From a virus (taxonomy: Duplodnaviria; Heunggongvirae; Uroviricota; Caudoviricetes), in IMG/VR virus record IMGVR_UViG_2698536335_000014, positions 1 through 35,750 of that record: a DNA stretch of 35,750 nucleotides, one strand, 5' to 3'. The position numbers and the translations under genes are program-made. The notes under the pieces were generated by a model. It did no database searches. It was not told the origin of the DNA and worked only from the letters and a program-made list of their open reading frames with translations. Each line of letters opens with the position of its first letter. Positions within the stretch are counted from its first letter, which is position 1. Of the stretch, positions 5,975 through 34,509 are shown piece by piece.

Positions 5975-7147
5975 TTACGCGCTGACCTGGCTGGCGAAAT
6001 TCACCAGGTACTGATCGGTGATGCGCTGACGCAGCATCAGGTTTTCAAGTGGCGGCACTGGCGTGTAGTCGTAGTCGATGGTGAGTTTTCCGGCTTTCAG
6101 CGTGTCTTTGTCGTTCACCGACTCATCCAGCCAGCAATCACCACCAATGAGATAGCCCTGACTGACCAGGCTGCGCATTTTGGCGCGGATACCTTCGATA
6201 ATGTCGCGGGCCAGCGACGGGTTAAGCGGTTTATCCACCGCCCACATGTGTGCTTCTGCCATCGTGTCCATCAGCACCTGCGCCGTGCGGGTGTAGTTTT
6301 CGAAGGCAAAGAGCGGGTCATCACTCAGGCAGCGGGAACCCCAGAAGCGGAAACCGTCTTTACGCACAAGCGTGGTGACGTCGTTCTGGTTCAGCAGACC
6401 TGCATCGGTTGCCGGGTCCTGCAGATCCCAGAACACATCTGCAGAAATTCCGGTGACACCGTTCACGCCCACGTTGGACAGGCTTTTGTGCCATCCGGTC
6501 TGCTCGTCAATTTTGGCGCGCAGACCAAGCGCACGGGCGGTGGTATATGCCGTTGCTTCGGCATTCAGCACCGTGTCCCAGCCAGTAAAGTCAGGCCAGA
6601 TCAGCATCCCTTCGCGCTGGCTGAAGTTTTCGCGGTAAGTGATCGCCTCCTGCACTGTCTTGCAGCCATACGCTGACAGGTAAGCAAATCCACGCAGGCT
6701 TTGCGCCACGCTTAGCAACTCAGTAGCTACCGCCTTGGTGTCGTGGCCTGGCACGCCGAGAATGCGCGGTTTAACGCCGAGCTGTGACTGGGCAGATAAC
6801 AGGGCTTTCATACCTGTTTTTTTACCTTCAGCAGTCACTGCGCCGATGATATTGGTCGTGGTTTCGTCTTCCGTTTCACCCTGCGGCACACGCACAACAA
6901 TGGTCACGGGTTTTGCCTGGTCAGCGATGGCATCCAGCGAACGGGCCAGAGTACCTGACTCACCCGCTTTACCGCTGGCAGTCAGCACATCAGTGATCAG
7001 CACGGGTTTATTAAGAGGAAACATTTTTGCATCGGCATCATCGCCCGTGCAGACCATACCCACGATGGCGGTGCTCACCGTGGTAATGGATCGAGTGCCT
7101 TCGTTGACTTCAACAACGCGCACCCCGTGGTGGTAATCCTGAGCCAT
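5975..7147 (-). CDS. FI: contractile tail sheath protein gpFI
   Basis: 390-aa ORF, ATG start, P2 FI-like. Confidence 0.9.
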
Positions 7148-7223
7148 AGTGGCGAACCTCCTGATTGGATTAGGCTTCGCCCTATGTTGAAGTGATTGTG
7201 CCTGACAAACAGCTAAGCGCAGT

Positions 7224-7241
7224 TGTACCGTTATTCACACA
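7224..7241 (-). promoter_or_regulatory. candidate Ogr-dependent late promoter element upstream of FI (TGT-N12-ACA)
   Basis: TGTACCGTTATTCACACA centred about 85 bp upstream of the FI ATG; near-identical to the element upstream of O (TGTACCGACAACCACACA). Confidence 0.5.
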
Positions 7242-7289
7242 AAATGACGGTATTTGTCTGCTTTCAGGGATAATCAAAATAAAGCTGAT

Positions 7290-7862
7290 TCAGGGAGATT
7301 TATTGCTCTTATTTGCCGGAAATTTTCGATAAATGGTAGAAACGCCTACATCAAAAATCAGTGCAATACGCTGTCTTGATTCTCCGGCCTCGAGTAAACG
7401 CCCAATCTGTGCCCACTGTTCGCTGGTCAACTTAGGACGGCGTCCACCTACTCTGCCCTTAGCACGAGCTGCAGCCAGCCCCGCCCTGGTACGTTCAACT
7501 ATCAGTTCGCGTTCCATTTCAGCCAGGGCACCCATGACATGAAAAAAGAAACGGCCCATTGGGGTGCTGGTATCAATACTGTCAGTCAGGCTTCGGAAAT
7601 TCACGCCACGCTGGCGCAGCTCTTCTATCAGCGTAACAAGATGCCGCATACTGCGCCCCAGTCTGTCCAGCTTCCAGACAACCAGCGTGTCTCCTGCCGA
7701 TAGTGTCCTGAGCAGCTTTTTCAGCCCCGGTCTGTCGGACTTGGTGCCACTGATTTTATCCTCAAAAATCCGCTCACATCCCGCACAGTTCAGTGCATTG
7801 CGTTGCAAATCGGTGTTCTGGTCATTTGTTGACACGCGTACATAGCCAATAAGCATGATCAT
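7290..7862 (-). CDS. serine DNA invertase (Hin/Gin/Cin/Pin family), copy 1
   Basis: 190 aa; N-terminal resolvase catalytic domain (GYVRVSTNDQ with catalytic Ser) and C-terminal HTH; ATG start. Confidence 0.9.
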   Translation of the reverse strand: MIMLIGYVRVSTNDQNTDLQRNALNCAGCERIFEDKISGTKSDRPGLKKLLRTLSAGDTLVVWKLDRLGRSMRHLVTLIEELRQRGVNFRSLTDSIDTSTPMGRFFFHVMGALAEMERELIVERTRAGLAAARAKGRVGGRRPKLTSEQWAQIGRLLEAGESRQRIALIFDVGVSTIYRKFPANKSNKSP

Positions 7863-7911
7863 CCCCCTGAATAAAAACCGGAGATGATGCCAGTTAGCCG
7901 TTATCTCTGCA

Positions 7912-7937
7912 TTTTCATAAACGTTGGTTTGGGAGAA
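7912..7937. other. invertase crossover site 1 (hix/gix/cix-like)
   Basis: TTTTCATAAACGTTGGTTTGGGAGAA, about 50 bp upstream of the invertase start; inverted relative to sites 2 and 3; imperfect dyad of the TTCTCCTAAACCAAGG type. Confidence 0.6.
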
Positions 7938-8285
7938 GCGGCGAAAAGGGATGTGGGCACAGGAGAAAATCAGATACCGGATATGTCATCCTGGAAAAGA
8001 AATCCGAGTTCTAATCGCTGGAGAAAATTGCCTGATGGAACCATCATTCAAATGGGAATATCAGCATCAGGGCCATTAGGCTCACCTGTAAATATCACCC
8101 TGCCGATATCTTTCAGCAATACCAATTATTGTGTTGTTGCATCGTACGATAATGCACGGTCAGGTGTGTCAACAATGGTTAGTTTTGCAGCATTACCTGT
8201 TTCACCATCGCAATTTTCCCTGATGTCATCTGTGACTGAGCAAGGAATAAATCCTTTTGCTTACTGGATTGCTTTTGGAGATTGA
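7938..8285 (+). CDS. alternative tail-fibre C-terminal variable segment (Sv'-like), no start of its own
   Basis: Open frame runs through site 1 (..GLGE|AAKRD..) in the same phase as H at site 3 (..GLGE|GSALP..); it would fuse to the H constant part after inversion. Confidence 0.55.
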   Translation, partial: AAKRDVGTGENQIPDMSSWKRNPSSNRWRKLPDGTIIQMGISASGPLGSPVNITLPISFSNTNYCVVASYDNARSGVSTMVSFAALPVSPSQFSLMSSVTEQGINPFAYWIAFGD

Positions 8286-8288
8286 TAA

Positions 8289-8708
8289 ATGGACAGATAC
8301 TTCTATTCACAAAAAGAAAATGGTTTTTTTACCGATTTAAATAAAGCACCTTCAGATGCTGTTGAGATAACCACGGATGAATGGCTGTCACTACTGGATG
8401 GTCAGGATAATGGCATGAAAATAGTCAGCAATCAGGAGGGATATCCGGTTTTGACAGAGCAACCACCTTTATCAAAAGAAAACCTTATTGCATTGGCAGA
8501 GTTGAAAAAAGGAAAACTTATTAATGAAGCCAACGAGCACATGAACAGCAGGCAATGGCCTGGTAAAGCGGCTATTGGTCGTCTGAAAGGTGAGGAACTG
8601 GCGCAATATAATTTGTGGCTGGATTATCTGGACGCACTGGAACTGGTTGATACCTCCAGTGCTCCAGATATTGAATGGCCTACGCCTCCGGCAGTTCAGG
8701 CCAGATGA
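8289..8708 (+). CDS. tail fibre assembly protein (U'/G-like), partner of the alternative fibre segment
   Basis: 139 aa; C-terminal motif (DTSSAPDIEWPTPP) shared with the convergent chaperone ORF at 8680-9282; ATG start 4 nt after the Sv' stop. Confidence 0.75.
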   Translation: MDRYFYSQKENGFFTDLNKAPSDAVEITTDEWLSLLDGQDNGMKIVSNQEGYPVLTEQPPLSKENLIALAELKKGKLINEANEHMNSRQWPGKAAIGRLKGEELAQYNLWLDYLDALELVDTSSAPDIEWPTPPAVQAR

Positions 8709-9282
8709 CATCCGGCGCGGTGCTGGTATCTGTTGCCGTCACCGCGTCAATGTAATCCAGCACGGCGTTAAGTCTGGTTGTTTCTGCCTGCGTCAGTTTA
8801 CGTCCGGCCTGTAATTTCAGCTGAATCAGACTAATGGAAGCCATTGCTGCATCAATCAGTGACTGGCGCTGTGCTTCTGCCGCGTCTACTGCGGCACTAT
8901 GCTGTGCCTCAGTATCTGTCACCCATTTCTCACCATCCCATTTATCGTATGGCGTTAACGGGACGATAGTGGTTGTATTTTCAGGGTAATCACCCGGAGC
9001 TGTGATTTCTTTTGATTCTCCCGTTTCGGTGTTATAGACAACTTCACCGCGATGGTCTGGCACATATTCCCATGAGTTAAAATCTGCAGAACGGCAGATT
9101 GCATAACCAGCTTTATGTGTAACTGGTGCATCTAAACAAGAACATGCCGGGATACCGACGCCAACCGCAAGATATTCAGTTGATGTGGAAATATATTCCC
9201 GCGTTTCACCATCATAATTATAAATGGTAATGTCTCCCGCTTTTATGGCAATGAGTTCGTTATTTAATACGGCTTTATTCAT
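8680..9282 (-). CDS. G: tail fibre assembly protein (gpG/U-like), full length
   Basis: 200 aa; ATG overlaps the stop of the upstream variable segment (TGATG); 3' end converges on and overlaps U'. Confidence 0.8.
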   Translation of the reverse strand: MNKAVLNNELIAIKAGDITIYNYDGETREYISTSTEYLAVGVGIPACSCLDAPVTHKAGYAICRSADFNSWEYVPDHRGEVVYNTETGESKEITAPGDYPENTTTIVPLTPYDKWDGEKWVTDTEAQHSAAVDAAEAQRQSLIDAAMASISLIQLKLQAGRKLTQAETTRLNAVLDYIDAVTATDTSTAPDVIWPELPEA

Positions 9283-9779
9283 CAGGCAGCTCTCACGATA
9301 TAATTAAAGGCAATGTTACGAGGACGGTTTTCGTTTGCAGTTGGAACAATTCTTGAAGCATCAAGGCCAATCACTTTTGGGTAAACAGCGCCATCTGTTC
9401 TTTCAGTCACCATACTTCTGATTAAGGAGAAATAACTATTGTTCGTTGAGGGATTCAAAGGCACCACTGCCCCCTTAAACGAGCCTACTGATTCCCATAT
9501 TGAATAATTTTCGGTGTTTACAGTCTTGAACTCACCATAGATATTACGTATGGCATCGCCCTGAGCGGATAATATTGCCCTCCCCGTATCCATACCACGT
9601 CCGTCATCCCAGCCACGAATAAACTCACCACGTAAATCAGGCAATTTATTTGTCGGGTAAGCCTTTGCCAGTTCTGGGTATTCTTCAGCAGAAAAAGCTG
9701 CTCCGTTGCATTTTAGCCAGCCTGTTGGCGGAGTGGCTGAGGGCCACGGAACAGGTACGCCAACAGGCAATGCTGAGCC
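9282..9779 (-). CDS. tail-fibre C-terminal variable segment A, copy inside the invertible segment (no start of its own)
   Basis: Identical to the C-terminal 166 aa of H (10979-12538); bounded upstream by site 2. Confidence 0.6.
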   Translation of the reverse strand, partial: GSALPVGVPVPWPSATPPTGWLKCNGAAFSAEEYPELAKAYPTNKLPDLRGEFIRGWDDGRGMDTGRAILSAQGDAIRNIYGEFKTVNTENYSIWESVGSFKGAVVPLNPSTNNSYFSLIRSMVTERTDGAVYPKVIGLDASRIVPTANENRPRNIAFNYIVRAA

Positions 9780-9805
9780 TTCTCCTAAACCAACGTTTAT
9801 GAAAA
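9780..9805. other. invertase crossover site 2
   Basis: TTCTCCTAAACCAACGTTTATGAAAA; its reverse complement matches site 1 except for one base. Confidence 0.6.
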
Positions 9806-9854
9806 TGCAGAGATAACGGCTAACTGGCATCATCTCCGGTTTTTATTCAGGGGG

Positions 9855-10427
9855 ATGATCATGCTTATTGGCTATGTACGCGTGTCAACAAATGACCAGA
9901 ACACCGATTTGCAACGCAATGCACTGAACTGTGCGGGATGTGAGCGGATTTTTGAGGATAAAATCAGTGGCACCAAGTCCGACAGACCGGGGCTGAAAAA
10001 GCTGCTCAGGACACTATCGGCAGGAGACACGCTGGTTGTCTGGAAGCTGGACAGACTGGGGCGCAGTATGCGGCATCTTGTTACGCTGATAGAAGAGCTG
10101 CGCCAGCGTGGCGTGAATTTCCGAAGCCTGACTGACAGTATTGATACCAGCACCCCAATGGGCCGTTTCTTTTTTCATGTCATGGGTGCCCTGGCTGAAA
10201 TGGAACGCGAACTGATAGTTGAACGTACCAGGGCGGGGCTGGCTGCAGCTCGTGCTAAGGGCAGAGTAGGTGGACGCCGTCCTAAGTTGACCAGCGAACA
10301 GTGGGCACAGATTGGGCGTTTACTCGAGGCCGGAGAATCAAGACAGCGTATTGCACTGATTTTTGATGTAGGCGTTTCTACCATTTATCGAAAATTTCCG
10401 GCAAATAAGAGCAATAAATCTCCCTGA
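9855..10427 (+). CDS. serine DNA invertase, copy 2 (protein identical to copy 1)
   Basis: 190-aa product identical to the 7290-7862 ORF; lies in the inverted duplication. Confidence 0.85.
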   Translation: MIMLIGYVRVSTNDQNTDLQRNALNCAGCERIFEDKISGTKSDRPGLKKLLRTLSAGDTLVVWKLDRLGRSMRHLVTLIEELRQRGVNFRSLTDSIDTSTPMGRFFFHVMGALAEMERELIVERTRAGLAAARAKGRVGGRRPKLTSEQWAQIGRLLEAGESRQRIALIFDVGVSTIYRKFPANKSNKSP

Positions 10428-10569
10428 ATCAGCTTTATTTTGATTATCCCTGAAAGCAGACAAATACCGTCATTTTGTGTGAATAACGGTACAACTGCGC
10501 TTAGCTGTTTGTCAGGCACAATCACTTCAACATAGGGCGAAGCCTAATCCAATCAGGAGGTTCGCCACT

Positions 10570-10691
10570 ATGGCTCAGGATTACCACCACGGGGTGCGCG
10601 TTGTTGAAGTCAACGAAGGCACTCGATCCATTACCACGGTGAGCACCGCCATCGTGGGTATGGTCTGCACGGGCGATGATGCCGATGCAAA
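10570..10691 (+). pseudogene. duplicated 5' fragment of FI (first ~40 codons, [17 protein letters not shown]...), truncated
   Basis: Exact inverted copy of the FI start region; ends at a breakpoint at 10691/10692. Confidence 0.75.
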
Positions 10692-20980: not shown

Positions 20981-22747
20981 ATGAACACCACACTGACACC
21001 CGCAGATCTCGATCCCCGTCGGCAGGCCATGCTGCTGTACTTTCAGGGATACCGCGTAGCCCGCATTGCTGAAATGCTGGGCGAGAAAGTTGCAACCGTT
21101 CACAGCTGGAAAAAACGCGACAAGTGGGGTGACTATGGGCCGCTGGATCAGATGCAGCTCACCACTGCCGCACGCTACTGCCAGCTCATTATGAAGGAGC
21201 ACAAAGAAGGGAAAGATTTCAAAGAGATTGACCTGCTGGCGCGCCAGTCGGAGCGCCATGCGCGGATCGGCAAGTTTAACAATGGCGGCAACGAAGCCGA
21301 CTTAAACCCTAACGTCGCCAACCGCAACAAAGGCCCGCGCCGTCAGCCGGAAAAGAACGTTTTCACCGATGAACAGATTGAGAAGCTGGAAGAAATCTTC
21401 CATTCCTCCATGTTCAACTACCAGCGCCACTGGTGGGAAGCCGGAAAAACCAACCGCATCCGCAACCTGCTGAAGTCACGCCAGATCGGCGCGACCTTCT
21501 ATTTTGCCCGTGAAGCCCTGATTGACGCCCTGCTAACCGGGCGTAACCAGATTTTCCTTTCCGCCAGCAAGGCTCAGGCCCACGTCTTTAAGCAGTACAT
21601 CATCGACTTCGCCAAAGAAGTGGAGGTGGAGCTGAAAGGCGATCCGATGGTGCTTCCTAACGGGGCCACGCTGTACTTCCTCGGCACCAATGCCCGCACG
21701 GCCCAGAGTTACCACGGCAACCTGTATCTGGATGAATATTTCTGGATACCGAAATTCCAGGAGCTGCGCAAAGTGGCTTCCGGTATGGCTATTCACAAAA
21801 AATGGCGACAAACCTATTTTTCCACGCCATCCAGCCTGACACACAGTGCTTATCCGTTCTGGTCCGGTGCGCTGTTCAACCGAGGGCGCAACAAAGCCGA
21901 TAAGGTGGACATCGACCTGTCCCACAGCAATCTGGCCCCCGGCCTGCTGTGCGCAGACGGGCAATACCGCCAGATAGTCACCGTGGAAGATGCGGTGCGC
22001 GGCGGCTGTAACCTGTTCGACCTCGACCAGTTGCGCATGGAGTACAGCCCGGACGAATACCAGAACCTGCTGATGTGTGAGTTCGTGGACGATCTCGCGT
22101 CCGTGTTCCCGCTCAGCGAGCTGCAGGCGTGTATGGTGGACAGTTGGGAAGTCTGGACCGACTTTCATGCACTGGCCCTGCGCCCGTTTGGCTGGCGCGA
22201 GGTGTGGATCGGTTATGACCCGGCAAAAGGTACGCAGAACGGCGACAGCGCCGGATGCGTGGTGATGGCACCGCCAGCCGTGCCAGGCGGTAAGTTTCGC
22301 ATTCTTGAGCGTCACCAGTGGCGCGGGATGGACTTCCGCGCCCAGGCTGACGCCATCAAAAAACTGACCGAACAGTACAACGTGACCTATATCGGCATCG
22401 ACTCAACAGGTGTCGGTCACGGGGTTTACGAGAACGTGAAAGCGTTCTTTCCTGCCGTCCGGGAGTTTGTCTACAACCCCAACGTTAAAAACGCCCTGGT
22501 ACTCAAAGCCTACGACATTATCAGTCACCGTCGTCTGGAGTTTGACGCCGGACACACCGACATAGCGCAGTCATTTATGGCAATCCGTCGCGCCACCACC
22601 GCCAGTGGCAACCGCCCGACCTATGAAGCCAGCCGCAGCGAAGAAGCCAGCCACGCCGATCTGGCCTGGGCAACGATGCACGCACTGTTTAACGAACCGC
22701 TGCAGGGCGAGTCCGCCAATACCAGCAATATTGTGGAGATTTTTTGA
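20981..22747 (+). CDS. P: terminase large (ATPase) subunit gpP
   Basis: 588 aa, ATG start; P2 gpP-like. Confidence 0.9.
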   Translation: MNTTLTPADLDPRRQAMLLYFQGYRVARIAEMLGEKVATVHSWKKRDKWGDYGPLDQMQLTTAARYCQLIMKEHKEGKDFKEIDLLARQSERHARIGKFNNGGNEADLNPNVANRNKGPRRQPEKNVFTDEQIEKLEEIFHSSMFNYQRHWWEAGKTNRIRNLLKSRQIGATFYFAREALIDALLTGRNQIFLSASKAQAHVFKQYIIDFAKEVEVELKGDPMVLPNGATLYFLGTNARTAQSYHGNLYLDEYFWIPKFQELRKVASGMAIHKKWRQTYFSTPSSLTHSAYPFWSGALFNRGRNKADKVDIDLSHSNLAPGLLCADGQYRQIVTVEDAVRGGCNLFDLDQLRMEYSPDEYQNLLMCEFVDDLASVFPLSELQACMVDSWEVWTDFHALALRPFGWREVWIGYDPAKGTQNGDSAGCVVMAPPAVPGGKFRILERHQWRGMDFRAQADAIKKLTEQYNVTYIGIDSTGVGHGVYENVKAFFPAVREFVYNPNVKNALVLKAYDIISHRRLEFDAGHTDIAQSFMAIRRATTASGNRPTYEASRSEEASHADLAWATMHALFNEPLQGESANTSNIVEIF

Positions 22748-23784
22748 TGGGAAAGAGTAAGAAAAACCGCGCTGCGGCGACGAATCAGCTCAAGCATAAA
22801 AGCCAGACTTCAGCCGAAGCATTCAGCTTCGGTGATCCCGTTCCTGTACTTGACCGCCGCGAACTGCTGGACTATGTGGAATGCGTACAGACAGATCGCT
22901 GGTATGAGCCTCCTGTCAGCTTTGACGGACTGGCGCGCACCTTCCGCGCTGCCGTGCATCACAGTTCACCAATTGCGGTGAAATGCAACATTCTGACCAG
23001 CACCTACATCCCTCACCCGCTGCTCAGCCAGCAGGCTTTTTCGCGTTTTGTACAGGACTATCTGGTTTTTGGTAACGCCTACCTGGAAAAACGCACGAAC
23101 CGCTTCGGAGAGGTCATCGCTCTTGAGCCTGCGCTGGCAAAATACACCCGACGCGGGTTAGACCTGGATACCTACTGGTTTGTGCAATATGGTATGACAA
23201 CCCAGCCGTATCAGTTCACGAAAGGCAGCATCTTTCATCTGTTGGAACCGGACATCAACCAGGAGATCTACGGCCTGCCCGGTTATCTTTCTGCCATTCC
23301 GTCCGCTCTGCTCAACGAGTCCGCCACGCTGTTCCGCCGGAAGTATTACATTAACGGTAGTCATGCAGGCTTCATCATGTACATGACCGATGCCGCGCAA
23401 AACCAGGAGGATGTGAACAACCTCCGCAACGCAATGAAAAGCGCCAAAGGTCCAGGCAACTTCCGCAACTTGTTTATGTACTCGCCTAACGGTAAAAAAG
23501 ACGGGCTTCAGATCATCCCATTGTCAGAAGTCGCGGCGAAGGATGAATTTCTTAACATCAAGAACGTGAGTCGGGATGACATGATGGCAGCGCATCGCGT
23601 GCCGCCGCAAATGATGGGGATTATGCCTAATAATGTCGGGGGGTTTGGGGATGTGGAAAAAGCCGCTCGCGTTTTTGTACGTAACGAACTGCAGCCATTG
23701 CAGAAACGTATGTGCGAACTGAACGAATGGATTGAGGAAAAAGTAATAAATTTTGAAGCGTATCAGCTCTCAATTGAGCAATAA
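22747..23784 (+). CDS. Q: portal protein gpQ
   Basis: ATG at 22747 overlaps the P stop (TGATG); track ORF starts at TTG 22744; P2 gpQ-like. Confidence 0.9.
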   Translation: MGKSKKNRAAATNQLKHKSQTSAEAFSFGDPVPVLDRRELLDYVECVQTDRWYEPPVSFDGLARTFRAAVHHSSPIAVKCNILTSTYIPHPLLSQQAFSRFVQDYLVFGNAYLEKRTNRFGEVIALEPALAKYTRRGLDLDTYWFVQYGMTTQPYQFTKGSIFHLLEPDINQEIYGLPGYLSAIPSALLNESATLFRRKYYINGSHAGFIMYMTDAAQNQEDVNNLRNAMKSAKGPGNFRNLFMYSPNGKKDGLQIIPLSEVAAKDEFLNIKNVSRDDMMAAHRVPPQMMGIMPNNVGGFGDVEKAARVFVRNELQPLQKRMCELNEWIEEKVINFEAYQLSIEQ

Positions 23785-23818: not shown

Positions 23819-23840
23819 CCTATAGATCAGGGTCTATAGG
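23819..23840. terminator. candidate bidirectional hairpin terminator between convergent Q and the cargo operon
   Basis: cctataga-tcaggg-tctatagg: 8-bp perfect stem, 6-nt loop, followed by TTTAT; overlaps the stop codon of the 215-aa ORF. Confidence 0.35.
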
Positions 23841-24467
23841 TTTATGATGTAATGATACAGGATAATGCACAACTTGATAATCCAGCTTACTTACAGTATG
23901 AAGGTGCTGACTATAAAAAACCAAGGGGTTTTTTGGGCAATCAATAATATTAACGGATTTACAAGCATGAATCCTAGGTGCATTCTTTGATAAGAATGTT
24001 TTCCATGAATCCATCATGTCAGAACAGGAAGCGTTTTTCGTATAAATAATTAAACCACCCGAAGAGCTATTTATAGTCCCAGTACTATACCGCTCGGTAA
24101 GTTGTGCATAACCTTTAAAAAGATATAAATATGAAGAATGTTTTTTAGCTTCCCCATGCCAGATATAATCTGCAAGGGTAATAGATATATCACAATGTCC
24201 TCTCTGGTTCTTCTCGTGACTGGCTTCGAGCCCCAGATATCTATTTTCAATATACGAAAGCAAATATAGAGTTAACTGATCTTCAGAGAGATCAAAGTTA
24301 ATTTTATTGCCATTTTGCTCTAATTTACTTACAGCGTAATCCAGCTCCTTTCGAACAAGACTGTTGAAATTAGAATAGGACTCCAACGCAAATTGAATCC
24401 TTTGAATGGCAAAGTGAACCTTCTGCAAATGAAAGTTTTTCTCCAAATCATCCAGACTTGTAAGCAT
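23820..24467 (-). CDS. hypothetical protein, third gene of the AT-rich cargo operon
   Basis: 215 aa, ATG start overlapping the upstream stop (translational coupling); no motif I recognise. Confidence 0.7.
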   Translation of the reverse strand: MLTSLDDLEKNFHLQKVHFAIQRIQFALESYSNFNSLVRKELDYAVSKLEQNGNKINFDLSEDQLTLYLLSYIENRYLGLEASHEKNQRGHCDISITLADYIWHGEAKKHSSYLYLFKGYAQLTERYSTGTINSSSGGLIIYTKNASCSDMMDSWKTFLSKNAPRIHACKSVNIIDCPKNPLVFYSQHLHTVSKLDYQVVHYPVSLHHKPIDPDL

Positions 24468-24895
24468 TAGTACGCCCCTTCCTTTGTGAAATTAATAACT
24501 GTAAAGAAAGGAAATACATATTTTTTGTAGTCTGGCACAATCTCACCAGTATATGGATGCTCTAAACCTTGATTATCTTCAGCATCAATCACGTCCGCAA
24601 TGCTTATATTAACTGGATCGAAACCATCGTCTATAAATTGATAGTTTAATTTCAAAAAATTAACTTTTGGATTACACAAAACTTGGATAGCCAAGTAAAT
24701 ATCATGCTCATCCACTTTAGCGCCCCCCTTATTCGAAATCGCTATATCAAATAAAAGGTTATAACTAATGAATATATTAGGAGAGCGAGCTGCTAACTTT
24801 GCAAGTTTTTCATAAAACATGCACGCCAAAACTCCCACTTCTGGGCGTTCTGAGCATATGTCTTGTATAGTCTTTGCCAAGTTAGCATCCTTCAT
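24467..24895 (-). CDS. hypothetical protein, second gene of the AT-rich cargo operon
   Basis: 142 aa, ATG start 12 bp downstream of the first gene; no motif I recognise. Confidence 0.7.
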   Translation of the reverse strand: MKDANLAKTIQDICSERPEVGVLACMFYEKLAKLAARSPNIFISYNLLFDIAISNKGGAKVDEHDIYLAIQVLCNPKVNFLKLNYQFIDDGFDPVNISIADVIDAEDNQGLEHPYTGEIVPDYKKYVFPFFTVINFTKEGAY

Positions 24896-24907
24896 TTTTG
24901 TCTCCAG

Positions 24908-26014
24908 CTATAGTATCAGCTTCGTAAGCGTTTCGAAATCATCACGAGAGATACATTTACTAAGTATAGCAAAATTCACTGGTGAACCAGAGCTTCCACT
25001 AAGGTACCGTCTTAGCGTTCCTGGTATAGTAAGTTCTACATTGTCCGCTAACTGTAGTAAAGGATTTGTTCGCTCAACCCTGATGCCTATCCTATAAAGT
25101 CCGATATTGCCTACGGCTTTAATACCTTCTTGATTGAAGATATCTTGTCTCAAATCTTTAGTGGAGTCAGTTTTCCTTTCCTTATGTGTTGTCCCTTCAG
25201 GGGTAAGGAATGAAAGCTCAAAAACTTTATAATTAAGAGTTGAGTATGGTTTTTGATCTTGCTTAAAGATTGGTTCAATCAAGGGAAAGAAATCTCTTTC
25301 TTTTGATGCAAACTCAGCACCTATAATATTATAAAGTTCTCTTACTACAGTACTCTTTGCAAACAAGACGCTCTCACCTATTGTATTAATACCTGCATCT
25401 ATCAAAATAGAGATAGTAGAGTTGGTCTTATTAAAAATGCACACATCAAAACATTGATGCTTTTCTTTTTTAGTAGCAATGATCTCTTCGTAGCCACTGT
25501 ACTGCGGTAAACTTTTAGGCGAAATCCGCTCTCTAATTTTTTGCTCTCTAACGGAACTAAATAGAGCTAAAGCCTGATTATTGCTCTCAGAATAATGAAC
25601 TAAGTTTATTTTATTCTTCCCCGACGCATTAATTTCCTGCTCAGAAAGGATTACATCTGAGGCGACAGAAGGCTGTTCAGATAAATCCCACTTTAATTTC
25701 ATAGCCTTTGTTAGCGAGGAAATTATTTGGTTGTCTACTGATAAACAAAAAAAAGCTTTATCACCGTAGACCAATTGACCAAATATTAAATTATTTACAG
25801 ACCTTATGATATCATTAAATTTATTTAAATTCTTTTCCTTTAATTCTGTTAATTCTTCCAGTATTTTTCCATGAGTAGCATCTCTACCTTTACCACGAGC
25901 TAATCCAAGAGCTGAAATAACAGGTTTTGCCACGTTCCATGGAAATCTCGTGATTAGTGTCAAAATGGATTTCATTTCTGCTTCACTAAGTACTACTGGG
26001 ACATTTCCTGTCAT
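24908..26014 (-). CDS. hypothetical protein, first gene of the AT-rich cargo operon
   Basis: Track ORF starts at GTG 26041; first ATG at 26014 (MTGNVPV..); about 370 aa; no Walker A, HEPN or other motif I recognise. Confidence 0.7.
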   Translation of the reverse strand: MTGNVPVVLSEAEMKSILTLITRFPWNVAKPVISALGLARGKGRDATHGKILEELTELKEKNLNKFNDIIRSVNNLIFGQLVYGDKAFFCLSVDNQIISSLTKAMKLKWDLSEQPSVASDVILSEQEINASGKNKINLVHYSESNNQALALFSSVREQKIRERISPKSLPQYSGYEEIIATKKEKHQCFDVCIFNKTNSTISILIDAGINTIGESVLFAKSTVVRELYNIIGAEFASKERDFFPLIEPIFKQDQKPYSTLNYKVFELSFLTPEGTTHKERKTDSTKDLRQDIFNQEGIKAVGNIGLYRIGIRVERTNPLLQLADNVELTIPGTLRRYLSGSSGSPVNFAILSKCISRDDFETLTKLIL

Positions 26015-26157
26015 CTTAATTACCTGTTGAAATTGCAACACAAGGTCGTCTTCGGGAGATCAATGGGAGTATTCCAATAACTTACCCAGGTATAGGAGTG
26101 CTTTCAAGTCTAAGACTATCTTCTGTCTAACAGCGCATGTTTTCATCTAAGCGCGCG

Positions 26158-26176
26158 CTCGTATCCCCGCCACGCC
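26158..26176 (-). other. candidate cos cohesive-end sequence
   Basis: Minus strand reads GGCGTGGCGGGGATACGAG; the first 13 nt match the GC-rich 19-nt cohesive end of 186/P2 as I recall it (GGCGTGGCGGGGAAAGCAT / GGCGAGGCGGGGAAAGCAC); sits in a 416-bp non-coding gap. Confidence 0.45.
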
Positions 26177-26457
26177 TGCCCGCTTTATGTAGTGGTTTTC
26201 ATGCACCTGCATGACATGAGTAAAAGCCCGCCGGTTCTGGCAGGTCTCTGCAAAAACGAGCCTCAATTGATCATGCGATTTCATGCAGCATAGTCATGCA
26301 CAGCCAAGGGAAGCGTAAATCCGTATCAGAATGACCGCTGAAAAGCGAATCATAAGGGTTTACAAAGATGAAACTCCGCTGTGAGCGAAAAGCGGACGTT
26401 GGAAGTTTAAAACTCGCGAACTACTCAGCGTCCATTGATGCGTATTGTGTAACGTGA

Positions 26458-27102
26458 TTAACCACAGATGATATTGAAACGTTCTCCGGAAATCTTGACC
26501 ATAATGTCAGACAGTTTGCTGACGGCATGGGCTTCAGATGATCCCAGAGCGTCAGGCTGAACAGCTATTACCGAAGCTCCACTTGCCAGCCCTGCTTTTA
26601 TACCCGCAGATGCATCCTCAAATACCACGCATTCACCAGGCTCAAGGCCCAAAGCCAAAGCTGCTTTGATGTAACCCTCGGGACTTGGTTTTCCCGTCAT
26701 TACATCTTCTGCACACACCATTACTATGGGTAAGGGGAGATTAGCCGCTTTCATCCTGTTTTCGGCAAGCATTCTGCCTGCAGAAGTGACAAGTGCCCAG
26801 CTATCCGGTGGCAGTTTTGATAAGAGTGCAGCGGCCCCTTTTACTTCAGTAACGCCTTCTGTCGTGTTGATTTCAACCTCTTCGAGTGAGGCCGCGATTT
26901 TATTGGTTTTCTCACCTGCACCAATAAAATGCGTTAGTGTATCAATCGTTTGCCGCCCGTGTGCGTAAGCAATCACAGCCTGAGAATCAAGACCGTATTC
27001 TGCACAAAAATCTCTCCAGACGCTTTCCACTACGGCTGTTGAATCAACCAGCGTACCGTCCATATCGAATAAAAAACCCTTAGCGTTGAATATCATTGCC
27101 AT
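26458..27102 (-). CDS. HAD-superfamily phosphatase (YfbT-like sugar phosphatase / beta-phosphoglucomutase family)
   Basis: 214 aa; N-terminal FDMDGTLVDS motif (DxDGT) and conserved C-terminal E-D-A-G motif; resembles E. coli YfbT as I recall it. Confidence 0.8.
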   Translation of the reverse strand: MAMIFNAKGFLFDMDGTLVDSTAVVESVWRDFCAEYGLDSQAVIAYAHGRQTIDTLTHFIGAGEKTNKIAASLEEVEINTTEGVTEVKGAAALLSKLPPDSWALVTSAGRMLAENRMKAANLPLPIVMVCAEDVMTGKPSPEGYIKAALALGLEPGECVVFEDASAGIKAGLASGASVIAVQPDALGSSEAHAVSKLSDIMVKISGERFNIICG

Positions 27103-27125
27103 TCCTTAATGGTTGCAGAAGAAAG

Positions 27126-27764
27126 TTAATCAAACCATGTTTTTTCATCACCTTTCGCTACTCTCAGGCTGACAGCAATCTGCTCAGGCACAATTCTTGA
27201 AAGCGACAATTCAGGCAGGTCGTTGACATCAAAAAAATCAGCATCGAGTGACTCATGGCTGATTGACAGGCTGCCACCTACTTCTTCACAGAGAAAAATC
27301 AGCTTGTAAACATGCCAGGGTAAAGGCGGATGGCCGTGAAGATTACGATCCCAAACTCCCAATAGTTTAGTCACTCTGACTTTTAATCCGGTTTCTTCTT
27401 CGACCTCTCGACGCACAGCTTCAGAAGGTGTATCTCCAACATCTGCCCATCCGCCAGGAAGACTCCATAATCCATCTGCAGCCTCTTTCACCATCAGAAT
27501 ACGATTATTACGCAGGATAAACGCACGCACATCTGTTTTGGGCGTCGCGTAACCCGTTTCCGATACATGAAACAAATCATTGCGGCTAATATCAAACTGC
27601 GAACTCAGCAGTCCAGCGGCAATTTCACGCAAGGCTTCATAGCGTTCCTTGTCAAAGACGTCTTTTGAATAGGTCAGGCCTGACTGCGCGAGGGCCTTTA
27701 GTCTCTGGGCAACAAAAATAAGCTTTTCTTGGGTCAACACTTCAGACATGTTTTTCATCTTCAT
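27126..27764 (-). CDS. NUDIX hydrolase
   Basis: 212 aa; Nudix box GGWADVGDTPSEAVRREVEEETGL (GX5EX7REUXEEXGU pattern). Confidence 0.85.
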   Translation of the reverse strand: MKMKNMSEVLTQEKLIFVAQRLKALAQSGLTYSKDVFDKERYEALREIAAGLLSSQFDISRNDLFHVSETGYATPKTDVRAFILRNNRILMVKEAADGLWSLPGGWADVGDTPSEAVRREVEEETGLKVRVTKLLGVWDRNLHGHPPLPWHVYKLIFLCEEVGGSLSISHESLDADFFDVNDLPELSLSRIVPEQIAVSLRVAKGDEKTWFD

Positions 27765-28537: not shown

Positions 28538-30952
28538 TTAATACAGATCCCGCCACTTATCATCTTCCTGCAAACGCTGGTTCCGATAGAAGATACGCAG
28601 GCCTGATCCTGACGGAATACTGCCACCGCGAAGGAGTAAATCGACCTCTTTCTCGCTGCCGTCAAATCCTCTGGACTTCAGTTCATAGACAAGCTGCTGT
28701 CGCTGATGGTCTGTAATTCGCTGTTTGTAGTCTTTACGCCGTTTCGGTTTCACCAGGCGTAATCTTGCTGTCAGTTCCCGGCGCTCTTTTTTGCTCATAC
28801 TGTGCAGGTAATCGTGCAACTCCTTGTCATTCATACGGGTGATATCCGTTCTGGTATCCCCATCAGCTGATTTGTCTTTCCCTTGTTGGGGCAAATTTTC
28901 AGTAAGGGGACAGTTATTGCCACGAGTCCAAGGGGCGCAAGCGCCCTGGTCGGCTGCCGCCTCCTGAACGTCAACGGCTTTACGAACCATTTTCCACTTC
29001 ACTGCATGAGTGCAGATCTTGCCCTCTGCAATGGGTGACCAGATGCCATAAATACGAATGCCGTGATCGCCATAGGCGGTCGGCTCTTCGTTGATTTCAT
29101 AAGCGGTTCTGATGAGGTGATATTTACGGGGAACCAGTACGCCGCCCTGCTTCATGATGTAGGTGGCAAAACAACCAGCATCAGCAGCAGCCAGGATGGC
29201 ATCAAGGCGCGGGTTATCCAGTACCGGCGCACCTGCTTTTTTGTCCCCCTTTTGCCTTGCCGCCTGACCAGCCAGCAATCGCAGTTCACGGTAAGCCTGA
29301 CGCCCCGGAATGCCAAAGAAGCGGAATTGCTGAACACGATGCAAAGACGCCCAGGCATTCACGTATTCAGCGTTATCACGCAGAGATTTACCCGTTTCCT
29401 TGCTGATCTCGCCAGCCAGACCACGCCCGTCAATGTTCTTACTGATGTATTTCGCTATGTAGCTTGTCGGCGTTCCTTTGCGCGGGTTAATCAGCTCAGA
29501 CTTAAAGCGCGGCCCCGTGTTATTGCCCAGCTCCTCGCGGTCTTCACGGATAGCAAACTTACGCAACAATGCTGTAATGGCGCGGCGGTCTTTTTTGCGC
29601 ATGAAACACAACAGGTGCCAGTGAACGGCGCCGTCGTGATGCGGCTCAGCCACCCGCACGCCATACCAGCGCAACCCGGCTTTGTGCATCGCCTTACGAA
29701 ATGCAGCAAACATACCGACCAGATAATCGCTGCTTTGTCTTACCGTCGCATTTGTCCAGGTCGGGTTGGGCCTGCCGTTATTTAGCGTGGAATGGAAACG
29801 TGACGGACAGGTGATGGTGTAGAAAACGGCGCAGTCACCGCGCATTTCCGCGATAAGCTCCAGACCTTTAACACAGGCCATCATCTCATTGCGGCGATGC
29901 GCAGGGTTGCTGCTGCTGGCGTTTACCACATCCTCCATGTCTAGCGTGTCGCCGTCTTCGTTCACCAGTTCATGAGAACGGAAAAACTCCAGCGACTTAC
30001 GGCGCTGCTCACGTTTATGCAACACGGCTTCATAGCTGACATAGGGAGATGCTTTTTTGCTGACAAGGCAGACAGCACGCAACTGCTCTTCCCGCCATTC
30101 GCAACGCATCTTCCATAATTTCCGATACCACCAGTCGGCGCACAACATACGCGCCAGCGAACCCGGAATGAGTTCATAGGGCACGGGTTTACGGCGGTTT
30201 CTTTTCCGGCGGAGTTGCTCAAACGCAGGCGGGATGACATCCAGACGCAGGGTTTCCGCTGCCACCCTTTCCCATGTATTGCGGATTTCTTCTGGCTTAA
30301 CGTCATCGGTGGCATACAAATCGCCACAAGCGGCATCAAGGCACATACTCATATGCGCAGCTACCAGGGTGGACAGGCGTTTCACCTGATCCTGACTCAT
30401 TTCAGGCAGGATCAGCAGGCCGTCCAGCCCTTCATGGCTTGCCATAAAGCGAAAAGATGCAGACAGCTGACTGTCGCGTACATGCTCCAGTCGTTCCAGA
30501 CATGGCTTAATCGTCTCACGTAAGTAGCGGGAATAAGCCTTTGGCCTGCCCAGGCTGCTGAAGTATTCAATACGTTGCATCAGCGGCTTGCTGATATGGG
30601 AAGGCTGGGCGTTGACGTCCGCCAGAATGACCATATCCGGATTAAAACGCTGCTGCTCATGCGCCAGCTTTGCCCGACTAATGAGCTTATCCTGTTCCAT
30701 TTCGCGCTGGACAGGATCACGGGATTCATTAAAGAAATAACGCTCCCAGACCTGATCACTCAGCGCCTCACGGCGCAGCTGTTCCTGCTCGTTATCGGCA
30801 GCGTACAGAGTGATCAGGTTTGAAAGCGTAGAAACCGGCGCAACTTCCACCGGGTCCAGATAAGGGTTAATGGCCTTTTTCGAGCTGTTCCATGAGAACG
30901 ATGCGGCAGCTTCGTTAAAGCCGCAGCAGTTGTTCATATCGGCATGACTCAT
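28538..30952 (-). CDS. A: replication initiation endonuclease gpA (rolling-circle initiator)
   Basis: 804 aa, ATG start overlapping the dam stop; P2/186 A-like by size and position; ori expected inside the coding region. Confidence 0.85.
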
Positions 30953-31806
30953 GCACGTACTCCGTACACGGCAGAACTATCCACGCCACGCGAATAATCA
31001 AATCCCACCCAGCAGCGCGGCCCGGAAACAGCAATGATTTCTGTTGCTGATTTACCCTCGCCAGCTGCCACACCGATGCTGCGTTTTGCCTTGATGTAGT
31101 GGTGAGTAAAATTGCGATACAGCGAACGGATCAGGGATGTGTCACTGTTAGAAACAATGACCGGATGTCCTTCTGATGACCGATGTTCAAGAACAGATGC
31201 CAGGTGATACTGGTCATCTTCAGTGAAGCCGTCAGTGTGATAGCCGGAAAACGTACCGTCATACGGCGGATCGCAATACACCACATCCCCCGCCTTCAAC
31301 ATCGCCAGCGTTTCATCAAAGCTGGCGCAGATAAACGTTGCTCGCTGGGCCTTTTCTGCAAATGCGCGAATTTCTTTTTCAGGGAAATACGGATTTTTAT
31401 AATTACCGTAGGGAATGTTGAAATGCCCGCTCTTGTTATAGCGACATAAACCACGGTAACCGTGACGATTGAGATACAGGAAATATACCGCTTTCATGAA
31501 ATCAGTAATTTCAGTTGAGTAATTAAACTCCTGCCTTATGTTGTAATAAGCCACCTCCCTGTTTGCGTTCTCAAATAAAACTCTGGCGCGAGATATAAAC
31601 GATTCACAATCAGCGGCAACCTTTTTATAGAGGTTGATTAAATCAGGATTAATATCCGCAACCAGATAGCTGGGATAATCCGTCTCCATCATCACAGCAC
31701 AGGAACCCGCGAAAGGTTCAACCAGTCGCGGGCCAGCAGGAAGATGTTTTTTCAGTTCGGACATTATGGCAGTTTTATTTCCCGCCCATTTCAGGATGGT
31801 GCTCAT
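30949..31806 (-). CDS. dam: DNA adenine methyltransferase (Dam family)
   Basis: Start at ATG 31806 ([11 protein letters not shown]..); motifs VEPFAGS (SAM binding) and DPPY (catalytic). Confidence 0.85.
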
Positions 31807-32030
31807 ACAGCACCTCCGTTGTAATGTTTGCCTTTCAGCTCTGCGATTTCCTGACAGGTAATGCAAAGCTGCACACCCGGAATGGCACGGCGGCGTGCTG
31901 GCGGAATTGGCGCTTCACACTCAATGCAAAGCACGCGGGACACGCCCGGCGTTTTGGCACGGGCAGCACGGATATGGCGTTGGCGTTCTTCTTCAACGCG
32001 CTGCTGTACGAGATCCATTGCATCAGCCAT
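31803..32030 (-). CDS. TraR/DksA-family C4 zinc-finger protein
   Basis: 75 aa; CIECEAPIP...CITCQ four-cysteine motif. Confidence 0.75.
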   Translation of the reverse strand: MADAMDLVQQRVEEERQRHIRAARAKTPGVSRVLCIECEAPIPPARRRAIPGVQLCITCQEIAELKGKHYNGGAV

Positions 32031-33726: not shown

Positions 33727-33732
33727 GTGACC

Positions 33733-34302
33733 ATGAATTTGGAGAAAGGCGGACGAGGCGCCATAGAGCGCATGGTAGAAGCTTATGGATTCAAGACTCG
33801 ACAGGCGTTGTGCGATCATTTAGGAATCTCTAAAAGTACACTCGCCACACGCTACATGCGTGACTCATTCCCAGCAGAATGGGTAATCCAGTGCGCCCTT
33901 GAAACAGGCACCTCGCTTAATTGGCTCACAACCGGGCATGGTTCAAAGCAAACTTCAGGTAATACAAATACTATGGAAGTTGCTAAATATGTATTATCTG
34001 ATGGGGCCTTGTGTGAAGACGGTTTTTATATTTTCGATAGAGAATTTCTACCGTCGGCATTCAAGAATCTTTTTGTAATCACAGATAATAATTCTGAATT
34101 TATTTGTGATAAGGAATTTGATGATATACGTGATGGTAAATGGGTAATAAGTATTGATGGCGAAATAACGATCCGTGACATTACTCGTTTACCCGGTGGA
34201 AGAATCTTCGTCGAGGGTGGAAACAGAGCCTTTGAATGTAAGATAGAAGACATTGAAATAATTGGTAAAATTATAAGTTTAACAGTCAAGTATGTTAAAT
34301 AG
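33733..34302 (+). CDS. cI: CI immunity repressor (186 CI type)
   Basis: ATG 33733 with SD ggag (track start is GTG 33727); 189 aa; upstream of int on the same strand. Confidence 0.7.
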   Translation: MNLEKGGRGAIERMVEAYGFKTRQALCDHLGISKSTLATRYMRDSFPAEWVIQCALETGTSLNWLTTGHGSKQTSGNTNTMEVAKYVLSDGALCEDGFYIFDREFLPSAFKNLFVITDNNSEFICDKEFDDIRDGKWVISIDGEITIRDITRLPGGRIFVEGGNRAFECKIEDIEIIGKIISLTVKYVK

Positions 34303-34317
34303 TACCGGGAGGAAATT

Positions 34318-34509
34318 ATGCTTGGTAAGGTATTTTTTGTGGTTTTGTCATGTTCTTTGTTATTAAACCCACTAGCTACCTATGCTAGAAATTATCCCTG
34401 CTCAGGGAAAAAGGGAGGTGTTTCTCACTGTACCTCTGATGGCAAATTCGTTTGCAATGATGGAACTATTAGTAAATCCAAAAAAATCTGTACTAAAAAC
34501 TCACGATAA
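34318..34509 (+). CDS. small secreted cysteine-rich protein (moron in the cI-int operon)
   Basis: 63 aa, ATG with strong SD gggagg; N-terminal signal peptide ([23 protein letters not shown]) then a mature peptide with 5 Cys; AT-rich. Confidence 0.5.

Follow-up and report, generated by a model that had tools for sequence, protein, structure and literature searches.

A rare three-gene cassette beside cos in a P2-like prophage combines a predicted PD-(D/E)xK nuclease with an RdgC-fold protein and is a candidate anti-phage defence system

Introduction

What is the function of three adjacent genes that lie between portal gene Q and the cos site of a P2-like prophage? The question arises from their position. 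Rousset et al. (2022; PMC9122126) defined the stretch from gpA to gpQ around the cos site of P2-like phages as a hotspot for anti-phage systems. Here, we analyse a stretch of 35,750 nucleotides (IMG/VR record IMGVR_UViG_2698536335_000014), referred to as the window, in which this position is occupied by three genes designated gA, gB, and gC and collectively termed the trio. We ask whether these genes belong to the phage backbone or are cargo, what their products resemble, and which role best accounts for their anatomy and distribution.

Results

The trio fills the slot between Q and cos

The window contains a P2-like prophage in reverse reading. Genes for the tail, lysis, and capsid are followed by terminase P and portal gene Q; on the other side of the trio and cos lie a HAD/NUDIX gene pair, a DinI-like gene, gpA, a Dam-like methylase, CII, CI, and the integrase. 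The coordinates of the features that delimit or compose the locus are collected in Table 1.

Table 1 Features of the locus between terminase P and the Dam-like methylase (window coordinates)
Feature	Positions	Strand	Remarks
Terminase P	20981-22747	+	
Portal gene Q	22744-23784	+	One boundary of the cargo slot; convergent with gC across a 35-bp spacer
gC	23820-24467	-	215 aa; predicted PD-(D/E)xK nuclease of BamHI/OkrAI-like fold, proposed effector
gB	24467-24895	-	142 aa; acidic, proposed connector of the DNA-engaging partner and the nuclease
gA	24908-26014	-	368 aa from ATG; proposed DNA-binding sensor or platform
Upstream non-coding region	26015-26150	-	From cos to the start of gA
cos core variant GGCGTGGCGGGGATACGAG	26158-26176	-	Other boundary of the cargo slot; read from sequence
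Replication endonuclease gpA	28538-30952	-	
D12 (Dam-like) methylase	30949-31866		

The three open reading frames are tightly coupled on the minus strand. gA and gB are separated by 12 bp, and the stop codon of gB and the start codon of gC share one base at position 24467. An open frame of 368 codons would arise by chance with a probability of ~1e-11 in DNA of 36% GC, in which ~7% of random codons are stops, and homologues with identities as low as 23-36% were found for each of the three proteins. The improbable length of the frames in AT-rich DNA, together with these distant homologues, shows that gA, gB, and gC are real genes. The longest reading frame of gA begins at a GTG and spans 24908-26041 (377 aa). 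However, the RefSeq/GenBank annotation uses the ATG at 26014, and the residues 'MTG..' that begin there are kept in 33 homologues; we therefore take this ATG as the true start. An AGGTAA ribosome-binding site can be read 7 nucleotides ahead of it. A consensus scan upstream of gA found no strong sigma-70 promoter; a weak candidate consists of TTGAAA (26107-26102) and TAAGTT (26084-26079) separated by 17 nucleotides.

The cos boundary required closer definition. A search for P2 cos that allowed up to three mismatches returned no match, because 5 of the 19 bases of the core variant in the window, GGCGTGGCGGGGATACGAG (26176-26158), depart from the P2 cos sequence. Of 5,426 complete E. coli genomes, 1,291 contain the block that surrounds this core (~26150-26404), and pFR109, a clone made by Rousset et al., carries cos on an almost identical stretch. 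The presence of a cos-type core within a conserved, cos-bearing block places the trio between the stop codon of Q and cos.

The trio is rare and replaceable cargo

The GC content of gA, gB, and gC is 0.356, 0.357, and 0.356, respectively, as compared with 0.512 for Q, 0.569 for P, and 0.512 for the full window. Among the 5,426 genomes of E. coli, approximately 1,209 carry the type of Q gene found in the window, but the trio accompanies it in just 6 of these, in all of which Q is 99.9-100% identical. These six genomes part from the window sequence just beyond cos. The trio also occurs in Klebsiella phage KP12.

Inspection of sister prophages revealed that the Q-proximal slot is variable. One harbors the reverse transcriptase and effector of retron St85 in this position, a second contains IS1 and three other genes, and in a third the slot is filled by another three hypothetical genes. 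The far side of cos assorts independently: prophages without the trio, Peduovirus P24C9 among them, carry the HAD and NUDIX pair at 99.5-99.8% identity. From these observations, we conclude that the trio is horizontally acquired, rare, and replaceable cargo and is not a conserved set of structural or packaging genes.

A preliminary description of the window, made by reading the sequence, had anticipated much of this picture. It proposed three tightly coupled minus-strand genes between Q and cos, a base composition richer in AT than that of the backbone, and horizontal acquisition into a P2-like hotspot, all of which the analysis confirms. A survey of synteny, which it had recommended, revealed the variable slot described above; conservation of the three proteins as structural or packaging components of most P2-like phages, which it had named as evidence to the contrary, was not seen.

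Library searches link the trio to no named defence family

Neither Pfam nor NCBIfam contains a match for gA, gB, or gC, and the members of all three alignments gave only scattered chance hits when compared with Pfam. In PHROGs, the trio matches families of unknown function exclusively. Comparison with PADLOC-DB 2.0.0 (2023) yielded no match; a single hit to Cas9 (E = 0.11) was spurious. Thus, the trio corresponds to no named defence family in PADLOC-DB 2.0.0, Pfam, or NCBIfam. The lack of a PADLOC match fits novelty and a role outside defence equally well.

gA corresponds to WP_032254892, which is listed as 'hypothetical' in Table S5A of Rousset et al. among the loci of the P2 hotspot; its locus falls outside the set of systems that these authors cloned. 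No description of the cassette emerged from literature searches, whose coverage was incomplete, that used RefSeq accessions or addressed RdgC-like defence proteins, accessory nucleases of Type ISP enzymes, and BamHI-like systems of three components; a preprint about the modular discovery of defence systems in E. coli does not mention it.

gC is a predicted restriction-endonuclease-fold nuclease

Despite this lack of annotation, gC displays a clear PD-(D/E)xK signature. The predicted core has the order alpha-beta-beta-beta-alpha-beta; strand 2 opens with an acidic residue, and strand 3 contains the (D/E)xK element. The catalytic signature is invariant, and E62, D93, E106, and K108 are the putative catalytic residues. 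Structurally, gC best matches Type II restriction enzymes and McrC; HamA and SduA are further neighbors. A sequence-profile search of the PDB with gC returned nothing useful. By fold and signature, we assign gC as a restriction-endonuclease-fold nuclease and propose that it carries out metal-dependent cleavage of DNA, a putative activity.

gA is predicted to adopt an RdgC fold

gA begins with a helical region (residues ~1-84), in which R23, W26, G43, T47, and K50 are kept among close homologues, and continues into an RdgC-like alpha/beta body. Two independent methods assign gA to the RdgC / Iml3-Chl4 fold, with similarity that extends across both domains; the structure also matches TBP-like proteins. 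Characterised members of this fold form ring- or horseshoe-shaped dimers that bind DNA nonspecifically with respect to sequence, and we infer that gA binds DNA. The pI of gA (8.7) is only suggestive in this regard. TM-scores between gA and models of phage RdgC proteins are low (0.3-0.45). The RdgC model of Pfam (PF04381) matches neither gA nor any of 28 diverse relatives, no sequence similarity to RdgC or lambda RexA was detected, and a sequence-profile search of the PDB with gA gave nothing useful. Moreover, gA differs from RdgC in its extra N-terminal helical region of ~85 amino acids, in its residence on mobile elements, and in its constant association with gB and gC. A profile search with gA retrieved 424 clusters at 50% identity, nearly all of them full-length (340-380 amino acids).

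The assignments of gC and gA change one part of the preliminary description. It had considered the three proteins unrecognisable and devoid of a nuclease motif, neither of which survives the detection of a PD-(D/E)xK signature in gC and an RdgC fold in gA. Its broader suggestion, that the locus is a candidate novel anti-phage system, is sustained as regards mobile cargo with a candidate role in defence.

The RdgC fold also invites an explanation in which the trio serves the phage as a recombination or replication accessory, combining an RdgC-like modulator of RecA with a structure-specific nuclease that aids phage DNA metabolism or acts near cos. RdgC inhibits RecA functions (PMC11077077), RdgC-like 'recombination-associated' proteins are encoded by lytic phages, and the trio adjoins cos, with a DinI-like gene not far away. 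Nevertheless, we consider such a role improbable. Over 99% of related P2-like prophages lack the trio, its place is taken by unrelated cargo that includes a retron, and its composition is foreign. In addition, the trio is found in contexts other than phages and is linked by fusion to restriction enzymes, as detailed below.

gB and gC form a module with alternative partners

gB is an acidic protein (pI 4.7) with two conserved motifs, FIDD and HPxTGE, and seven residues that are invariant in the alignment (A69, L73, F87, D89, P114, G117, and E118). It matches phrog_11490 in PHROGs and nothing in Pfam, NCBIfam, or, by profile search, the PDB. Information about its role comes from its neighbors. 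At every gA locus with enough flanking DNA, homologues of gB and gC follow directly downstream in the same order, and the stop and start codons at the junction of gB and gC usually overlap. As an ancient unit, the cassette keeps the order gA-gB-gC across Alpha- and Gammaproteobacteria, from Enterobacterales to Bradyrhizobium; hosts of the trio comprise Serratia, Pantoea, Rosenbergiella, Alteromonas, Candidatus Schmidhempelia, and Bradyrhizobium, in addition to several metagenomic contigs.

A search for related loci with the gC alignment identified 9 loci. Among 17 gC loci in all, 11 are complete trios and 6 lack gA. In each of the latter, a gB domain forms the extreme C-terminus of the protein encoded upstream, and gC follows directly. 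The fusion partner in three genera (Sneathiella, a Rhizobiales bacterium, and Roseivivax) is a Type ISP enzyme of ~1,770 amino acids that bears the gB domain after Type_ISP_C; the Roseivivax protein was assigned to Type ISP by its size and the position of its gB-like domain. In one example, the gB domain occupies residues 1655-1777 of an open frame of 1,784 residues (called protein, 1,773 aa; i-E 2e-10). Another partner is a ResIII helicase of 1,026 amino acids, again with gB at its extreme C-terminus. Because gC was never seen without gB, gB and gC can be regarded as a two-part module whose partner is gA at some loci and a DNA translocase at others. This alternation argues that gB may couple the nuclease physically to a DNA-engaging partner. 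The evidence for such an adaptor role consists of gene order and the fusions; alternatively, gB could be an inhibitor of gC.

Inhibition by gB is the premise of the main rival to a defence function, in which the trio constitutes a tripartite toxin-antitoxin or addiction module. Here, gC would be a DNase toxin, gB its direct inhibitor, and gA a regulator or DNA-bound anchor; the module would mainly stabilise the prophage or island and exclude phages secondarily. We judge this explanation unlikely, although it overlaps with defence in that many toxin-antitoxin systems act in defence. The trio departs in gene order from the usual antitoxin-toxin pair of two genes, the large gA protein is strictly co-conserved, and the fusion of gB to the C-terminus of a 1,770-residue Type ISP enzyme is easier to understand as docking than as immunity.

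Trios are also found outside P2 hotspots. At one locus, the trio is flanked by an integrase on one side and a SIR2_2 gene on the other; another trio shares its element with two integrases, a TraI_2 relaxase, and ArdC. Individual trios adjoin an HNH_2 protein or BrnTA, or lie near an MmeI-like methyltransferase or PRTase-CE/NADAR genes, and the helicase-fusion locus adjoins a DUF4011-helicase-REase gene. Two trios are located amid housekeeping genes and have no defence neighbor. In this small sample of ~25 loci, the contexts of the trio follow the pattern of mobile defence cargo. The ArdC gene near one trio, and the HAD and NUDIX pair that occupies the slot adjacent to the trio in the window, would accord with a tool of counter-defence or superinfection that phages direct against the immunity of hosts or rivals. 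We regard this as highly improbable, since trios are present on chromosomes and islands outside phages, coupled to restriction enzymes, and a nuclease effector suits an attack on DNA better than the inhibition of immunity.

The trio differs from known systems

In comparing the trio with characterised systems, we considered first its closest counterpart by location. The hp + hp + hp system of E. coli E1114, cloned as pFR109, protects against phage P1 (Rousset et al. 2022; PMC9122126). Like the trio, it is a three-gene locus devoid of recognised domains that occupies the P2 hotspot near cos (gpA to gpQ), a likeness of location alone and not of membership. Its proteins contain 333, 359, and 227 amino acids, as compared with 368, 142, and 215 for the trio, and the orientation of the cloned fragment indicates that it apparently lies on the gpA side of cos, whereas the trio lies on the Q side. 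We presume that it is the system later listed as Rst_3HP. The preliminary description had left room for the trio to be a published system of three hypothetical proteins. Identity with hp + hp + hp is rejected: all-against-all BLASTP produced E values above 4, and with hhalign the probability was below 1% when Hp2 and Hp3 were compared with the gA profile and Hp1 with the gC profile. Gene order differs as well.

A second counterpart is RexAB, which, like the trio, is encoded by a prophage and whose sensor, lambda RexA, has an RdgC-type DNA-binding fold (PMC11077077), the fold assigned to gA. RexAB includes the polytopic membrane partner RexB; the trio has no such component. The top hydropathy values over 19 residues are 1.43, 0.90, and 0.52 for gA, gB, and gC, respectively, and no transmembrane segment is present, which excludes identity with RexAB.

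gC shares 5-13% identity with the BamHI / OkrAI / BglII / BstYI group. These enzymes differ from the trio, which has no cognate methyltransferase and in which gC depends on gB and on either gA or a motor enzyme. With no methyltransferase in the cassette, the trio is not a Type II restriction-modification system. The D12 methylase encoded in the window was considered as a cognate enzyme and rejected; it is a backbone gene that is also found in the retron-bearing sister prophage, which lacks the trio. Type ISP enzymes of the LlaGI / LlaBIII type that carry a gB-like domain and are followed by gC represent a sister architecture. They share with the trio the gB-gC module alone: the Mrr nuclease, helicase, methyltransferase, and Type_ISP_C domains that define Type ISP are absent from the trio, as is a target-recognition domain, which precludes that identity. 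A profile search of the PDB found no gB-like domain in the solved LlaBIII structure.

The trio could also be a modification-dependent (Type IV-like) or sequence-directed restriction complex in which gA serves as the recognition subunit and infection is not sensed. In favor of this possibility are the resemblance of gC to Type II enzymes and McrC, the lack of a methyltransferase in the cassette, and the association of the module with Type ISP enzymes. However, gA matches RdgC and TBP-like proteins, and none of the known modified-base reader folds was found in it; furthermore, unlike McrBC, the trio has no NTPase. We assign such a complex a low probability and note that it is a sub-case of the defence function rather than a true alternative. 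HamAB (Hachiman), Shedu, McrBC, and P2 Old each pair a PD-(D/E)xK or related nuclease with a DNA-engaging component. The trio lacks their helicase or NTPase, and the partners belong to unrelated families; the likeness to Hachiman, Shedu, and McrBC is one of logic only.

Discussion

The current results lead us to propose, with moderate confidence, that the trio is a self-contained, mobile cassette whose most likely role is to cleave DNA and thereby protect the lysogen from other phages or from DNA that invades it. The best reading of the cassette is that of a previously undescribed defence system composed of a sensor, an adaptor, and a nuclease. Anatomy and context form the basis of this proposal: a predicted nuclease, an RdgC fold, residence in a defence hotspot, rarity, the occupation of the same slot by a retron, and foreign base composition.

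These considerations suggest a model in which gA, probably as a dimer, binds DNA and recognises a feature of the invader, such as free ends or intermediates of replication or recombination. The choice of these triggers draws on the RdgC ring and on the classical model of lambda RexA. gB would dock gC onto the DNA-engaging partner, which is gA in the trio and a translocating restriction enzyme elsewhere. Recognition would then release or position gC for cutting of DNA, and either the invader would be destroyed or the infected cell killed. Inasmuch as the cassette contains no methyltransferase, protection of self would stem from regulated activation and not from modification.

It is possible, and we advance it only tentatively, that gB-gC is a portable nuclease plug-in for unrelated proteins that track DNA, namely an RdgC-like ring of gA, Type ISP enzymes, and a ResIII helicase, and that it defines a new and widespread immune family. 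According to this extension of the model, the gA ring threads onto free ends or replication intermediates and thereby distinguishes an invader from the circular chromosome without recourse to methylation. The trio would then amount to a Rex-like sensor that is wired to a nuclease rather than to a membrane channel.

If confirmed, the cassette would represent a new and fairly widespread immune family, with 424 clusters of gA at 50% identity in Alpha- and Gammaproteobacteria, and would provide the first function for three protein families that have no annotation in Pfam, NCBIfam, or PHROGs. The DNA-binding fold of RdgC and RexA would also be tied to a nuclease effector. The means by which RexA detects infection has puzzled researchers for decades, and a soluble system that is simpler but shares this fold could bring the question within reach of experiment. 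The presence of gB-gC on Type ISP enzymes suggests an unrecognised route by which restriction enzymes gain a second nuclease. Finally, cassettes of this kind in the P2-like prophages of E. coli and Klebsiella would affect the host range of phages and, with it, phage therapy.

Domain fusions of gB and carriers of the trio

The gA-gB-gC trio, which encodes an RdgC-fold protein (gA), a small acidic protein (gB), and a predicted PD-(D/E)xK nuclease (gC), is present with 98.4% identity in Klebsiella phage KP12 (OM835953.1). Although that record is classified as Vequintavirinae, the gene content of KP12 is that of a P2-like phage, and the taxonomy line therefore looks wrong.

An additional domain homologous to gB, ~125 amino acids long, is appended to the C-terminus of Type ISP restriction-modification enzymes and of a ResIII helicase. 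These fusions were found in Sneathiella (loci L005, L006, and L012), Rhizobiales (L013), Roseivivax (L015; assigned to Type ISP from protein size and the position of the gB-like domain), and Pararhizobium (L016). Each gB-fused gene is directly followed by a gene for a gC-type nuclease that overlaps its stop codon. In the literature searched, we found no description of Type ISP enzymes with a C-terminal gB-like domain and an adjoining gC-type gene.

Backbone and tail-fibre region

Immediately upstream of the replication endonuclease gene lies a D12-class methyltransferase gene, which also occurs in a sister prophage that lacks the trio and is therefore part of the phage backbone. In the tail-fibre region, each arm of a perfect inverted repeat contains one of two identical DNA invertase genes. 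The enclosed segment comprises the C-terminus of the tail fibre, two tail-fibre assembly genes, and an ORF with a Collar domain. Invertible tail-fibre segments usually have one invertase and short crossover sites; duplication of the invertase within long perfect arms is unusual, and the arrangement could be genuine or an effect of assembly. The window has a second patch of strongly AT-rich DNA (GC 0.352), between the CI repressor and integrase genes.

Features of the window and of related prophages
Feature	Sequence	Position	Strand
Inverted repeat arms, 839 nt	window	7100-7938 and 9779-10617	
Enclosed segment, 1,840 nt	window	7939-9778	
DNA invertase, Resolvase/HTH_7, 190 aa	window	7290-7862	-
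DNA invertase, Resolvase/HTH_7, 190 aa	window	9855-10427	+
HAD-family phosphatase (214 aa) and NUDIX hydrolase (212 aa), gpA side of cos	window	26458-27764	
D12-class (Dam-like) adenine methyltransferase	window	30949-31866	
CI repressor, flanking AT-rich patch	window	33727-34302	
AT-rich patch	window	34001-34500	
Integrase, flanking AT-rich patch	window	from 34620	
Q-proximal slot, sister P2-like prophages	L019	6048-8077	
	L020	6112-8770	
	L021	6115-7978	

Other cargo around cos

Across cos from the trio, the HAD-family phosphatase and NUDIX hydrolase genes form a second cargo cassette that assorts independently of it. Genomes without the trio, namely those of Peduovirus P24C9 and phage 10W and of several E. 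coli prophages, have the pair with 99.5-99.8% identity. It might function in degradation of a nucleotide signal or in metabolism.

The Q-proximal slot, the interval between portal gene Q and cos that harbors the trio, differs in content among the three sister prophages. One encodes a retron St85 reverse transcriptase with its effector, another contains IS1 with a hypothetical/STAS-like/hypothetical set, and the remaining one encodes three different hypothetical proteins of 171, 215, and 231 amino acids. The latter two sets are additional uncharacterised candidates.
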